From: a virus
Lineage: Duplodnaviria; Heunggongvirae; Uroviricota; Caudoviricetes
Reading direction: 5' to 3' (one strand)
Virus record (IMG/VR): IMGVR_UViG_3300017605_000626
Location: 64,001-124,036 of that record
DNA length: 60,036 bases
A program made the position numbers and the translations under genes. The notes under the pieces are model-generated. The model was not told the DNA's origin. It saw only the letters and a list, made by a program, of their open reading frames with translations, and did not search any database. Below are positions 496-35,637 of the stretch, piece after piece; the first letter of the stretch is position 1, and every line of letters begins with the position of its first letter.

Positions 496-903
496 ATGAT
501 TATTAGGATAAGAAAACACCATTTGTCTTATTTTAGAAGGAAGGCTGCTAGATCTAATAATGAAGTTTTTGCTATGCTTTTAGGTCGTAGAATATCACCT
601 TCTTTAATAGAAGTAGATTTTTTTAAATACCCTAAATTGGAAAGATCTACGCCTTCAGAGGTTTGGGCTGATATGTATTCCTTTGGTCTTATAGAAGAAG
701 ATGCTAAAGATGATGGATTACATATTGTTGCTGATATTCATAGTCATGTAAATTACCCCCCAGTTTTAAGCCCATGTGATTATAGTGATTTAAAAGGAAG
801 TAAATGTACTTTATCTGGGGTAGTGAGTGTTATTGGTGGCCGCACATGGGTGAATTTTTGGGAAAGAGATAAATCTTTACCAGTTAGTATTGTATATTAT
901 TAA
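496..903 (+). CDS. JAB/MPN+ (JAMM) metalloprotease
   Basis: Complete JAMM motif: E in NNEVFAMLLG, then HSH-VNYPPVL-S-PC-D = H-S-H-x7-S-x2-D; RBS AAGGAG upstream. Confidence 0.85.
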   Translation: MIIRIRKHHLSYFRRKAARSNNEVFAMLLGRRISPSLIEVDFFKYPKLERSTPSEVWADMYSFGLIEEDAKDDGLHIVADIHSHVNYPPVLSPCDYSDLKGSKCTLSGVVSVIGGRTWVNFWERDKSLPVSIVYY

Positions 904-912
904 GGATTATTT

Positions 913-1104
913 ATGAATAAAAGAGAAGTAATAGAAGATTTAACTAGAATGTACAAAGATAAGGAGAAAGAGCTTGTACAAGGTTACAGCATTTCTTCTA
1001 GATTTGTAGATTCAGAGACAAAATATAAAACTTTCACGGATGAACTATATAAATTAAGACAAGAATATGAAGATTCTTTAAGAAAAGTTGAATATTCTGA
1101 ATAA
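913..1104 (+). CDS. Hypothetical small coiled-coil protein
   Basis: ORF track; tight spacing after JAB gene; AAGGA upstream. Confidence 0.55.
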   Translation: MNKREVIEDLTRMYKDKEKELVQGYSISSRFVDSETKYKTFTDELYKLRQEYEDSLRKVEYSE

Positions 1105-1140
1105 ATCTTACTGTTTTATGCTAAAAAGGGATGAATCATG

Positions 1141-1149
1141 TGGTATAAT
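1141..1149 (+). promoter_or_regulatory. Candidate extended -10 promoter (TGGTATAAT) for the head/tail operon
   Basis: TGnTATAAT in the 160-bp gap upstream of the GT2-portal operon; no good -35. Confidence 0.45.
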
Positions 1150-1263
1150 ATACTTAGGGACGTTTCCACACTTTATACATAGGTGATTAACTTGTTACGC
1201 TTAAAGAAAAAGACTCCTAAAAAGAAGAAAATGTATTAAGAGGTATTAGAAAGGATGTAAGTT

Positions 1264-2223
1264 TTGGCAGAGCCGTTGGTTACAATAGTAATAGCTTCTA
1301 GAAAGAATGCTCAAGGACTCTGGATGAGCATCAATAATATTGAGTGGGAGTTAAAAGAAGCCGGAATAGACTTTCAGTTTGCTATAGTAACAAATGATGA
1401 TGGCAAGTTAGATACTGATTCTAGGCAAGTTATTGAAATGCTTAGAACTAAAACAGGTTACTTAAAATACTACAGACATAACGAACTACCAATGACGCCG
1501 CAACAGGCGCGACAAGAGGCAATTGACAATACAAACTCTAAATATATTATTTGTTTTGATAATCATGTCCAGCTATGTCCTGGCTTTTTTAAAAGATTTT
1601 TTCACGATTGGGAAAGTACAGAAGCAGACATACTTCATTCGGCGACACAATATTACATAAACGATTTTATTTGTTATAACTATAAGTTACAACTAAAAAA
1701 AGATTTTTGGGGAGTATCAGACAGTTTTGCTTTAAATGAATATAAGCCCTTTAAAATAGGGGCGGCTGGTCATGGTGGAGTTGGATTTAAAAGAAGTTCT
1801 TTTGAGAAATACAGCGGATATAAATTATCAAGTTCTTTTGTGGGCTATTCAGGTGAGGAATTAACAGCAGATTTAGGTACTTGGTTACAAGGTGGTAATG
1901 TTTATATAAGTCCAAGATCAATTCATAGACATTGGGCTGCAACGACTAGGGGTTACGGAAGACATCACACAGAAGATTTTTATAAAAATTTATTTTCTTG
2001 TGCTTTTATACTCGCTAATGAAACAGCCGATGACTATGTTTATACAATGATGGATCATTTTAAGTCTTGCTCTAAACCTTATTTAAAGAAGCCAATGTTT
2101 GATATATTAATGGAAGCAAAAGAAAGAAGTAAACAAGATGCTAATTGGATTAAGGAAAGACGAGTAAGAACAATAGAAGAACAACTAGAAAAGTTCGAAT
2201 TAGAAGAAGTTGCTTATAGATAA
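1264..2223 (+). CDS. Glycosyltransferase family 2 (GT-A fold)
   Basis: TIVIASR N-terminal strand, ARQEAI...SKYIICFDNH (DxH variant), GYSGEE acceptor region; TTG start; stop overlaps portal ATG. Confidence 0.8.
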   Translation: MAEPLVTIVIASRKNAQGLWMSINNIEWELKEAGIDFQFAIVTNDDGKLDTDSRQVIEMLRTKTGYLKYYRHNELPMTPQQARQEAIDNTNSKYIICFDNHVQLCPGFFKRFFHDWESTEADILHSATQYYINDFICYNYKLQLKKDFWGVSDSFALNEYKPFKIGAAGHGGVGFKRSSFEKYSGYKLSSSFVGYSGEELTADLGTWLQGGNVYISPRSIHRHWAATTRGYGRHHTEDFYKNLFSCAFILANETADDYVYTMMDHFKSCSKPYLKKPMFDILMEAKERSKQDANWIKERRVRTIEEQLEKFELEEVAYR

Positions 2224-9726: not shown

Positions 9727-10088
9727 TTCCTCCAGTTGATGCTAAGGATAATCCTTTTATTTTAGTTTCTTCTTTTGCAGAGGCTTATCATTGGAGTTTA
9801 CCAGAGATAATGCAGTTGACTATGCCTCAGATAGTTTTAATGAACCATGCGGCTCATTATAACGGGGAATTAATGAGAGCTAGGATAGACTCAGATAAAC
9901 CTTCTAGATCAATTAATTATGAAGATGCTTATATTCCTGACGCTAATCCCAGAACTGGATGGTTTGATAGTCACGCAGCAAAGCAAATTGTGAAGGATGA
10001 CCCCTTAGTAATGGGAAATAAAAGATTATCGGATGTTAGTGATGACTTTGAATTATTAGCTAGGTATTTGTCAGACTGGAGTGTTTAA
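9696..10088 (+). CDS. C-terminal (T) part of the G-T chaperone frameshift product
   Basis: -1 frame reads STASDDSSGVIPPVDAKDNPFILVSSFAEAYHWSLPEIMQLTMPQ...; W-x3-EI-x2-LT is typical of T segments. Confidence 0.75.
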   Translation, partial: STASDDSSGVIPPVDAKDNPFILVSSFAEAYHWSLPEIMQLTMPQIVLMNHAAHYNGELMRARIDSDKPSRSINYEDAYIPDANPRTGWFDSHAAKQIVKDDPLVMGNKRLSDVSDDFELLARYLSDWSV

Positions 10089-32763: not shown

Positions 32764-33153
32764 ATGACAGTGCAGGACTTTATTCAGTACGCAGGGGCTG
32801 TAGGAGGAGGAGCAGCTAGTCTTAAATTAATTGAGCTTATAGTGGATTATTTTAAGGCAAGAAGAGAAAAATCTGTAGATTTTAAAAAGATTGACGTAGA
32901 AGAAAATATTGCTTTAACTAAATTAAATATTGAGAGTGAAGATAAACTTAGGCTTGAACTATGGGAAAGAATTAAATCCTTAGAATCAAGAGTAAATGAT
33001 TTAGATAGAAAAGAACAAGATTGTTGGGATAAGTATAATTTATTATTTAAAAGTAATGCAGAACTTTCAGCAGAGCTAAACTACGTGAAGACTATTTTAC
33101 ATAGTAGTAGTTCAGAAATAATTAAACTTCTTCCAAAAAAGGAGGATAAATAA
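32764..33153 (+). CDS. Holin-like / membrane-anchored coiled-coil protein
   Basis: Weakly hydrophobic N-terminal helix, charged coiled coil, position directly after tail genes. Confidence 0.4.
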   Translation: MTVQDFIQYAGAVGGGAASLKLIELIVDYFKARREKSVDFKKIDVEENIALTKLNIESEDKLRLELWERIKSLESRVNDLDRKEQDCWDKYNLLFKSNAELSAELNYVKTILHSSSSEIIKLLPKKEDK

Positions 33154-33154
33154 T

Positions 33155-33523
33155 TTGTTTGAGCATGGCTTTTGTATATTATGGAATAAGAATCTTATTA
33201 TTTGGTCTATTATAACTAATAGTGCTATAGCTATAGCTTATTTTTTAATACCATTAATATTATGGAGTGTGGCAAAATCTACTGATTTTAAAATTCCTAA
33301 GTCATATAAGAAAACTTTGTTGATGTTTGCGTCGTTTATATTTTTTTGTGGGTCTGGCCATTTATTAGATATAATGGTTATATGGTTTCCCTGGTATTGG
33401 ACTAAGATAGTCTGGGACGGTTTGACGGCTTTAACTAGCTTAATAACTGTATTTAATTTATACCCACTAGCTAAACGTTTTATAATCTTAGTGGATTTAG
33501 AGACTTCAGAGAATAAACTTTAA
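33155..33523 (+). CDS. Stand-alone ethylene-receptor-like (ETR1/Slr1212-type) three-helix membrane sensor domain
   Basis: HGFCILW; IAIAYFLIPL (ETR1 IAIAYFSIPL); FASFIFFCGSGHLL (ETR1 FGAFIVLCGATHLI); GLTALTS (ETR1 VLTAVVS); TTG start with GGAGG RBS. Confidence 0.85.
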   Translation: MFEHGFCILWNKNLIIWSIITNSAIAIAYFLIPLILWSVAKSTDFKIPKSYKKTLLMFASFIFFCGSGHLLDIMVIWFPWYWTKIVWDGLTALTSLITVFNLYPLAKRFIILVDLETSENKL

Positions 33524-34390: not shown

Positions 34391-34609
34391 ATGGAAGTTA
34401 AAGCAGAAATTTCTAATTTTAGAATGGCAGTTGCTTTACTTTCTGCTATTTCATTGTCTTATACATTATTTACAATGTTTGTTTATTATATATTTGGTGC
34501 TATATCTTTTGTTCTTGGAATTAGATATGTGTCATTTGGGTCCGCACATTTAATTTCTTTAATTTTATTTGTTTCTTTAACTTTAGTTAATATACTAAGA
34601 AAGGCTTAA
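34391..34609 (+). CDS. Small two-TM membrane protein
   Basis: ORF track; hydrophobic; GAGG RBS. Confidence 0.5.
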   Translation: MEVKAEISNFRMAVALLSAISLSYTLFTMFVYYIFGAISFVLGIRYVSFGSAHLISLILFVSLTLVNILRKA

Positions 34610-35361: not shown

Positions 35362-35637
35362 ATGAATAAGAGTGAGTATGGTAATTGTTTAAAAGCTTTT
35401 CGGTTATTCCGTGAATGCGAAGATAGTAGAATGTCTGGTCCAGGTTTGGTATTAGAAGGTGTGGTATTTCATACCGGGCAGATAGTAGTTAGTTGGTTTA
35501 GTGACGTTAATAGATCAAAGAGCGGTGCTAGTTCTTTAGGATTTTATAATAGTTTAGATGATTTTTATAAAATACACTGTAATTCACATCCGGCAGTTGG
35601 GTCTAAATTGGAATGGTATCGTATAAACTGGCCTTAA
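35362..35637 (+). CDS. Conserved phage hypothetical protein
   Basis: FRLFRECEDSRMSGPGLVLEGVVFHTGQIVVSW pattern familiar from phage proteins. Confidence 0.6.
   Translation: MNKSEYGNCLKAFRLFRECEDSRMSGPGLVLEGVVFHTGQIVVSWFSDVNRSKSGASSLGFYNSLDDFYKIHCNSHPAVGSKLEWYRINWP

Follow-up and report, generated by a model that had tools for sequence, protein, structure and literature searches.

What would a tailed phage do with an ethylene-binding domain that has no kinase attached to it? The question is posed by the gene at 33155-33523 (+) in a 60,036-nucleotide stretch of DNA, referred to here as the window, which spans positions 64,001 to 124,036 of the IMG/VR virus record IMGVR_UViG_3300017605_000626 (Caudoviricetes) and makes up the right half of that 124,036-bp record, itself estimated to be about 75% complete. 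The original prediction, made from the letters of this DNA alone, had taken the gene for a stand-alone ethylene-receptor-like, copper-binding membrane domain at the lysis position. From the profile, alignment and structure-model evidence set out below, we consider it secure that the gene encodes a genuine, intact, stand-alone ETR1-type ethylene-binding domain (ETR1_N). Its role is a more tentative matter, and we favour, at somewhat less than even confidence, a late two-protein membrane module that would act on lysis timing.

The ETR1-type domain and its ligand site

The 122-amino-acid (122-aa) product matches the Pfam family PF25487 (ETR1_N) with an E-value of 3.2e-21 and 75.8 bits, against a cut-off of 27, over profile positions 2-94 of 97. 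In an AlphaFold2 (AF2) model built on 64 homologs, with a predicted local distance difference test (pLDDT) score of 92.7, it folds into three helices (residues 12-43, 49-77 and 81-121), and all of the sequence motifs on which the original prediction had relied are present. When the model was compared by Foldseek with the Swiss-Prot part of the AlphaFold database (AFDB), the best 26 matches were all plant ethylene receptors (TM-score 0.62-0.75), and residues 14-124 of ETR1 (P49333) aligned on residues 11-121 of the query with a TM-score of 0.72 and a root-mean-square deviation of 3.0 Å. Thus, the profile and the fold comparisons with ETR1 both uphold the family assignment. A fold search of BFVD with the same protein returned the Maribacter phage Molly protein only, which is described below. 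No PHROG family was matched, and searches of the PDB by sequence and by fold gave no real match to the 122-aa protein, which is consistent with the fact that, to our knowledge, the ethylene-binding domain has never been solved experimentally. A metallo-beta-lactamase entry that appeared in the PDB searches at E 0.03 was rejected as a chance GH..D..V.W motif.

As the original prediction had stated, no output domain accompanies the ETR1_N domain: Pfam and PHROGs revealed no GAF, PAS or histidine-kinase domain fused to the 122-aa protein, whose chain stops 18 residues beyond helix 3 and which therefore does not qualify as an ethylene-receptor signalling protein, and the next gene encodes a DNA polymerase exonuclease subunit. 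With residues 1-128 of Arabidopsis ETR1/ERS1 the phage protein shares its family, its fold, three transmembrane (TM) helices and the Cys65/His69 Cu(I) site, but it lacks the GAF, kinase and receiver domains, its loop 2 is three residues shorter, and its gene is phage-encoded. It is likewise similar to SynEtr1 (Slr1212, Synechocystis) and AzoEtr1 (Azospirillum brasilense) in being a bacterial-type domain with the N-terminal PHGxCxLW motif. However, in those two proteins the domain is joined to PAS/phytochrome and histidine-kinase output modules that act on response regulators, whereas the phage protein has a coiled-coil partner gene instead. The isolated AzoEtr1 domain (residues 1-130) is sufficient to bind ethylene (PMC11819568).

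Over the 64 nearest homologs, the positions that are invariant or at least 90% conserved are H4, G5, C7, W10, Y29, I32, P33, F58, F61, I62, C65, G66, H69, W77, P79, Y81, T91, A92 and S95, and the phage protein keeps all of them. The HGxCxLW start and the Cys/His and Tyr/Ile/Pro positions, which had been described as retained, are thus all found in the alignment. So are the two substitutions that had been suspected at the equivalents of Asp25 and Lys91 of ETR1, namely Asn22, which we take to be the counterpart of Asp25, and Asp88, which we take to be that of Lys91; this mapping on the ETR1 sequence, in which the Cys65 and His69 numbers are unchanged, is consistent with the structural alignment and its offset of +3. 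Wang and colleagues reportedly named Y32, I35, P36, I62, C65 and H69 in 2006 among the residues needed for ethylene binding in ETR1, and equivalents of six of the seven required residues are present in the phage protein. The count of seven is given in PMC11819568.

In ETR1, Cys65 and His69 make up the copper site (PMC10266040), and Asp25 and Lys91 provide the polar bridge for high-affinity ethylene binding and signal output, which in the phage protein is replaced by Asn22 and Asp88. The ETR1 D25N mutant keeps its copper (PMC10266040), with an ethylene affinity about 100-fold lower (PMC11971883); non-basic residues at position 91 lower binding, and K91 mutants also retain copper (PMC10266040). 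Among the 64 homologs, the Asp25 column holds D in 42 and N in 20, and the Lys91 column holds K in 21, D in 12, N in 11 and R in 10. The combination of N22 and D88 occurs in 11 of the 64, so that 11 of the 20 rows with N at position 22 carry D at 88. On the evidence of this alignment, the Asn22/Asp88 pair is a recurrent natural subtype and not a sign of decay.

The partner gene, the sister phages and the genomic setting

The open reading frame (ORF) comprises 122 codons, begins with TTG, and is called with an identical product in the IMG/VR record's own annotation; it is the sole ETR1_N gene of the whole record. The stop codon of the partner gene upstream (TAA, 33151-33153) lies one nucleotide 5' of this start, and a ribosome-binding site stands within the 3' end of the partner gene (Table 1). 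A Shine-Dalgarno (SD) core precedes 45% of the genes of at least 80 aa in this phage, vs 8% of random windows. On the + strand of the record, a block of genes runs through TerL, the portal protein, the major capsid protein and a long series of tail and fibre genes. The ETR1_N gene closes the tail-fibre (late) run, directly 3' of tail-fibre genes, and is followed, after a 69-nucleotide gap, by genes for the DNA polymerase exonuclease subunit, a small membrane protein and a deoxynucleoside monophosphate (dNMP) kinase. The placement at the end of the tail operon and the translational coupling to the upstream gene that had been claimed from the sequence therefore both stand. Because a promoter and terminator scan of 30-37 kb gave no more sites than shuffled sequence, the operon limits were drawn from gene spacing alone.

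The upstream gene had been called holin-like in the original prediction. We find instead a coiled-coil protein with a marginal N-terminal hydrophobic helix and with no holin or spanin family match in Pfam or PHROGs. The hydrophobic helix (residues 9-27; Kyte-Doolittle 1.3-1.6) contains an invariant K21 and E24 and is flanked by a charge of -1 N-terminally and +3 C-terminally, from which the positive-inside rule predicts an N-out/C-in protein with its coiled coil in the cytoplasm. Among 5.8 billion proteins it has five relatives, 65-71% identical, in which the C-terminal half (residues 59-124) is nearly invariant. Its length across related contigs is 129-134 aa, and in every relative with readable downstream DNA (six of the six related contigs) the partner gene is followed by one or two ETR1_N genes, 0-3 nucleotides apart or overlapping. 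No effector or DNA-binding domain could be recognised in the partner, and its sole match in PHROGs, a weak one, was to phrog_1397, where no function is assigned. We also considered it as an i-spanin and rejected this on account of its reverse topology (a predicted cytoplasmic coiled coil) and of the missing o-spanin ORF: no + strand ORF of at least 20 aa is embedded in or overlaps the partner gene, and the next gene does not encode a lipoprotein.

Sister phages fall into two arrangements. The window and contigs L078-L081 hold a single ETR1_N copy (type B), and L002-L004, L007 and L077 hold two copies in tandem, type A and then type B. In the type A paralog, Arg replaces His4 as well as His69 and position 22 is Thr, whereas Cys7, Cys65 and the fold residues are retained; the joint loss of the two His residues suggests that the N-terminal His and His69 work together. 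Types A and B are mutually nearest relatives on the family tree, which indicates a duplication within this phage lineage. Between orthologous pairs of B, A and the partner, the proportion of synonymous differences (pS) is 0.62-0.94, such that synonymous sites are saturated, while that of nonsynonymous differences (pN) is 0.12-0.26; for the pairs that allow an estimate of dS, dN/dS comes to about 0.08-0.18. For the ETR1_N gene itself, a pS of 0.75-0.9 stands against a pN of 0.2-0.26. Furthermore, the length of the ETR1_N ORF is kept across relatives at 58-68% identity. By these comparisons, the ETR1_N gene is under strong purifying selection.

Table 1. Positions of the ETR1_N gene, its sites and associated genes (window coordinates unless a contig is named)
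Feature	Position	Strand	Basis or remark
Solo ETR1_N protein of 122 aa, with three TM helices and a short, charged tail at its C-terminus	33155..33523	+	Pfam, AF2 model, Foldseek, alignment
GGAGG ribosome-binding site within 3' end of partner gene, 9 nucleotides 5' of TTG	33141..33145	+	Sequence reading
C65-G-S-G-H69, predicted Cys-x3-His Cu(I) site on helix 2	33347..33361	+	C in 63/64 and H in 63/64 homologs
Asn22 codon AAT, presumed ETR1 Asp25 equivalent	33218..33220	+	Alignment, structural offset
Asp88 codon GAC, presumed ETR1 Lys91 equivalent	33416..33418	+	Alignment, structural offset
Partner gene, 129 aa: marginal N-terminal hydrophobic helix, then long coiled coil	32764..33153	+	Hydropathy, relatives' alignment
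Type A paralog	L004:670-1026, L077:10409-10768, L007:1-240		Sister-phage contigs
Probable endolysin, Peptidase_M15_4, 150 aa, no TM segment	52179..52631	-	Profile searches; context only, outside the module

Some further features of the surrounding DNA may be recorded here. A 72-aa protein with two or three TM segments and no family match is encoded at 34391-34609 (+) of the window, among DNA-metabolism genes and just 5' of the dNMP kinase gene, and a 71-aa membrane protein occupies a similar position in a sister contig (L077:13006-13221). In the same contig, a 93-aa product (L077:14693-14974) carries a precomputed Pfam Acb5 match; its 91-aa counterpart in the window (35362-35637) had no Pfam match when scanned. 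The phage also carries tRNA-Lys(ttt), tRNA-Arg(tct) and tRNA-Leu(taa) (G000:C1:3335-3785 and 9954-10042, L071), all of which read A/T-ending codons. As regards the host, the capsid protein is only about 30% identical to those of phages from many phyla. The SD usage argues against a typical Bacteroidota host, and atlas look-alikes of the partner together with one genome match point weakly towards one.

Stand-alone domains in bacteria and in other phages

Searched exhaustively with HMMER, a set of 1.84 billion representatives yielded 4,722 relatives (E <= 0.001), most of them long proteins. The nearest cellular relative, 44% identical, is a hybrid kinase of the architecture ETR1_N-PAS-HisKA-HATPase-REC on a 1.4-Mb contig of 58% GC, compared with 35% GC in the phage. 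Bacteria can also divide the receptor between two genes, as in the pair formed by the solo domain P0005 and the PAS-HisKA-HATPase-REC gene that follows it. Such split pairs resemble the phage arrangement in that a stand-alone domain is translated together with a neighbouring gene; however, the bacterial neighbour is a downstream sensor kinase, whereas that of the phage is an upstream coiled-coil protein with no enzymatic domain.

Of the 50,697 deposited phage genomes, which were searched with three tblastn queries, only those of the Maribacter phages Molly and Colly gave a match. In Molly (NC_062751, Molycolviridae), the cultured phage used for comparison, gp064 is a 148-aa protein with a strong N-terminal TM segment and then a coiled coil; gp065 (289 aa) overlaps it by 4 nucleotides and carries ETR1_N at residues 36-125 (E 1.5e-16), with the site CGIGH and Asn at the Asp25 position; and gp066, directly 3' of gp065, is an Amidase_3 endolysin. 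Colly has this layout as well, with its amidase endolysin directly 3' of the pair. The likeness to the window is considerable, as in both cases the tail genes are followed, within the late region, by a membrane-anchored coiled-coil protein and then by an ETR1_N protein that has Cys-x3-His and, in place of Asp25, an Asn. The differences are that gp065 has an additional C-terminal part of 160 aa of no assigned family, that the Molly pair abuts its endolysin, that the partners have no detectable homology and the phages are unrelated (neither TerL nor the portal protein shows detectable similarity), and that the Molly proteins are annotated as hypothetical. In the description of Molly, the amidase was the only recognisable lysis gene, no holin was recognised, and proteins with TM domains were noted beside the lysin (PMC8776804).

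A scan of IMG/VR with the back-translated motif yielded 15 contigs, 12 of which hold solo ETR1_N proteins of 122-219 aa. Peptide-pattern scans of IMG/VR with the protein itself, its close alignment, the partner, Molly gp065, P0014 and P0032 returned nothing beyond the source sequences. As regards lysis genes, a lysin is nearby in Molly, L087, L100 and L101, and in the phage of the window it is not. In L087/L091, a GH25 lysozyme gene lies 2.1 kb 3' of the solo ETR1_N gene. In L100, a gene for a 69-aa coiled-coil/TM protein separates ETR1_N from a T4-lysozyme-like gene 3' of it (phrog_7, E 4e-5), and in L101 a lysozyme-like gene is two ORFs 3' of ETR1_N (phrog_7, E about 5e-5). In L092 and L097, tail proteins are encoded directly 5' of the solo gene. 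Neighbours with a TM segment plus a coiled coil recur in L083, L094 and L098/L099, the last two of which have the ETR1_N gene between terminase and portal. Since hhalign detected no homology of the partner family with either Molly gp064 or the L083 partner, the architecture common to the partners of different lineages may be convergent.

Two unrelated observations were made on these contigs. Between the solo ETR1_N gene and the GH25 lysozyme gene of L087 (a contig of 61% GC), a 202-aa PAS-domain protein with a C-terminal TM segment is encoded at 747-1352 (-). At L099:2701-5382 there is an 894-aa protein with a Phage_portal domain and an Acb1 (anti-CBASS nuclease) domain (Acb1 E 1e-32), apparently a portal-Acb1 fusion.

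The family tree (117 columns) is poorly resolved; its well-supported branches nevertheless require phage sequences to sit in at least three separate places, though in no more than three, and the solo phage forms are therefore not one recent clade. In the literature on ethylene-binding domains and receptors in phages, viruses and holins, we found no description of a phage-encoded stand-alone domain, and reviews mention only kinase exchange with giant viruses. Thus, the earlier statement that no phage example had been described holds for the literature searched, though the unannotated gp065 of Molly does carry the domain.

A lysis role and its alternatives

In the reading that we favour, the ETR1_N protein would be a three-helix protein of the inner membrane, predicted to lie N-out/C-in, with its Cys65/His69 Cu(I) site on helix 2. 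Together with its obligate 129-aa partner, whose weak N-terminal membrane helix would be followed by a probably cytoplasmic coiled coil, it would form a late-expressed membrane module of the lysis apparatus, most likely a holin-type or holin-regulating (antiholin or timer) component. The state of the metal site, whether its copper load, its redox state or the presence of a small unsaturated ligand (ethylene, for example), may set the behaviour of this module, and the His-less tandem copy of the sister phages would then be a regulatory subunit that does not bind metal. The comparisons establish the identity of the protein, its fold, conservation and selection, the pairing of the genes, their place in the late operon and the recurrence beside lysins in other phages; the membrane topology, any binding of the partner to ETR1_N, any effect on lysis and any ligand are what we infer.

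We favour a lysis-associated module because the pair is late, membrane-embedded and obligate, because a lysin lies within about 2 kb of the solo domain in four of about 12 phage lineages (Molly, L087, L100 and L101), because the size, helix number, predicted topology and charged tail of the protein resemble those of class I holins, and because a tandem copy with a dead site resembles a holin/antiholin pair. Moreover, the M15_4 lysin of this phage has no secretion signal, so that it needs a holin. Class I holins are of similar size, with three TM segments and a charged C-terminal tail. In common with those of the lambda S105 type (about 100-120 aa, predicted N-out/C-in, late expression), the phage protein is a small late membrane protein with a charged C-terminus (122 aa, three helices, tail KRFIILVDLETSENKL) from the last gene of the tail operon. 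Further parallels with holin/antiholin systems are the endolysin neighbours in several phages and the two similar copies side by side in the sister phages. However, the protein has no sequence or profile similarity to any holin family, it carries a conserved metal or ligand site, and its gene is not beside a lysin here as it is in Molly, L100, L101 and L087. By a rough, post hoc chance estimate, a random gene in a 40-120-kb genome would be that close to a lysin in well under a tenth of cases.

Several points weigh against a lysis role. The original prediction had put the gene at the lysis position, which the gene map of this phage does not show: its sole recognisable lysin, of the Peptidase_M15_4 family, is encoded 19 kb away on the opposite strand, searches of the whole record revealed no Amidase_2, Amidase_3 or Phage_lysozyme gene, and the link to lysis comes from Molly, L087, L100 and L101. 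The count of lysin neighbours was made post hoc, over about 12 lineages and with no formal control. Pfam and PHROGs gave no holin or spanin family match, and the partners of the different lineages have no detectable homology. In addition, a mere pore former would not need complete ligand-site residues, so that the intact site points to sensing, and the L098/L099 copy between terminase and portal is away from lysis genes. Finally, a 63-aa, two-TM gene of the late block has a weak match to Phage_holin_5_2 (E 0.003, below the cut-off), and a conventional holin may therefore already exist. This gene is the first of two adjoining small two-TM genes (63 and 113 aa) that follow the terminase region, outside the window (G000:C1:51418-51957; L073:11418-11957). 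The M15_4 gene stands among minus-strand genes, adjoining a GT25 glycosyltransferase gene, with no membrane-protein neighbour.

In another reading, the pair would be a two-piece receptor unrelated to lysis, in which the domain would sense copper, redox or a gas and signal through the cytoplasmic coiled coil of the partner to a phage or host target, for example in late gene expression or superinfection exclusion. The conservation of every ligand-site residue fits such a receptor, as do the ethylene binding of isolated AzoEtr1[1-130] (PMC11819568), the nearly invariant C-terminal half of the partner, as expected of a binding surface, the predicted cytoplasmic location of its coiled coil, and the bacterial precedent of P0005 with its separate PAS-HK-REC gene. 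However, the partner contains nothing recognisable as an effector or DNA-binding domain, its binding to the ETR1_N domain is putative, and such a receptor would not account for the recurrence of lysins beside the domain in other phages; we therefore judge a receptor of this kind unlikely. A sensor is equally possible with a second proposal, of the same low standing, in which the solo domain would act as a decoy or modulator: it would heterodimerise in the membrane with a host ETR-type histidine kinase, whose output (biofilm, pili, motility) would be locked or blocked, to the advantage of the phage. Here it counts that ETR1-type domains act as dimers, that kinase-fused forms dominate the cellular homologs, that the dimer-relevant N-terminal HGxC motif is kept, and that those bacterial receptors that have been characterised govern surface and biofilm traits with a bearing on phage adsorption (PMC11819568). 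Yet, with the low identity to the nearest cellular relative and the gap in GC content given above, nothing points to a host receptor of recent capture that could be mimicked, and a decoy would account for neither the late-operon placement nor the obligate coiled-coil partner.

Three other explanations appear more remote still. A role in copper handling, in which the protein would bind Cu(I) in the membrane so as to buffer or scavenge the metal while infection lasts, would agree with the conservation of Cys65/His69 and of the N-terminal His4/Cys7, and with the copper binding retained by ETR1 D25N and K91 mutants (PMC10266040); it is improbable, as a small membrane protein with one copper makes a poor buffer, the paralog without the histidines is no less conserved and the obligate partner is again unexplained. 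The position of the gene directly 3' of tail-fibre genes, here and in L077, L092 and L097, would suit a virion-associated or ejection protein that is encoded with the tail genes and inserted into the host membrane at infection. We think this very improbable, since polytopic inner-membrane proteins are unusual in tailed-phage virions, nothing that we found ties the protein to the particle, and the Molly gene abuts an endolysin gene. Least credible of all is a decaying remnant of a captured host kinase gene, a fate that the original prediction had itself named as one that would undo it. The output domains of most homologs are indeed missing, but the domain is complete and has its own ribosome-binding site, the gene is duplicated in the sister phages, solo forms occupy at least three separately supported places in the tree, and ORF length is kept at the identities given above; saturated pS combined with low pN rules out a decaying fragment.

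Returning to the lysis module, a bolder version of it would hold that solo ETR1-type domains and their coiled-coil partners are an unrecognised, recurrent class of phage lysis proteins, in which hole formation, or the timing of it, would respond through a Cu(I) site in the membrane to copper, redox state or a gas (for example ethylene), with the His-less paralog as a built-in antiholin. We offer this as a speculation that is rather doubtful.

The ethylene-binding domain has been known so far only as the input module of plant and bacterial receptors, and here it appears without a kinase, in a recurrent phage architecture with a conserved partner. It is a natural minimal domain of 114-140 residues, which selection has maintained in several unrelated phages; its neighbours are always small membrane or coiled-coil proteins, and lysins are often close by. 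Two questions follow: what function the domain serves when no kinase is attached, and whether a late membrane event in phages, probably lysis, is tied to copper, redox state or a gas. For genetics, a cultured system is at hand in gp064-gp066 of Maribacter phage Molly, and the small solo proteins are attractive targets for a first structure of the ethylene-binding domain. Furthermore, Asp25, Lys91 and His69, the residues that are now being dissected in the plant field, have already been varied by nature in the Asn/Asp variant and in the His-less paralog.
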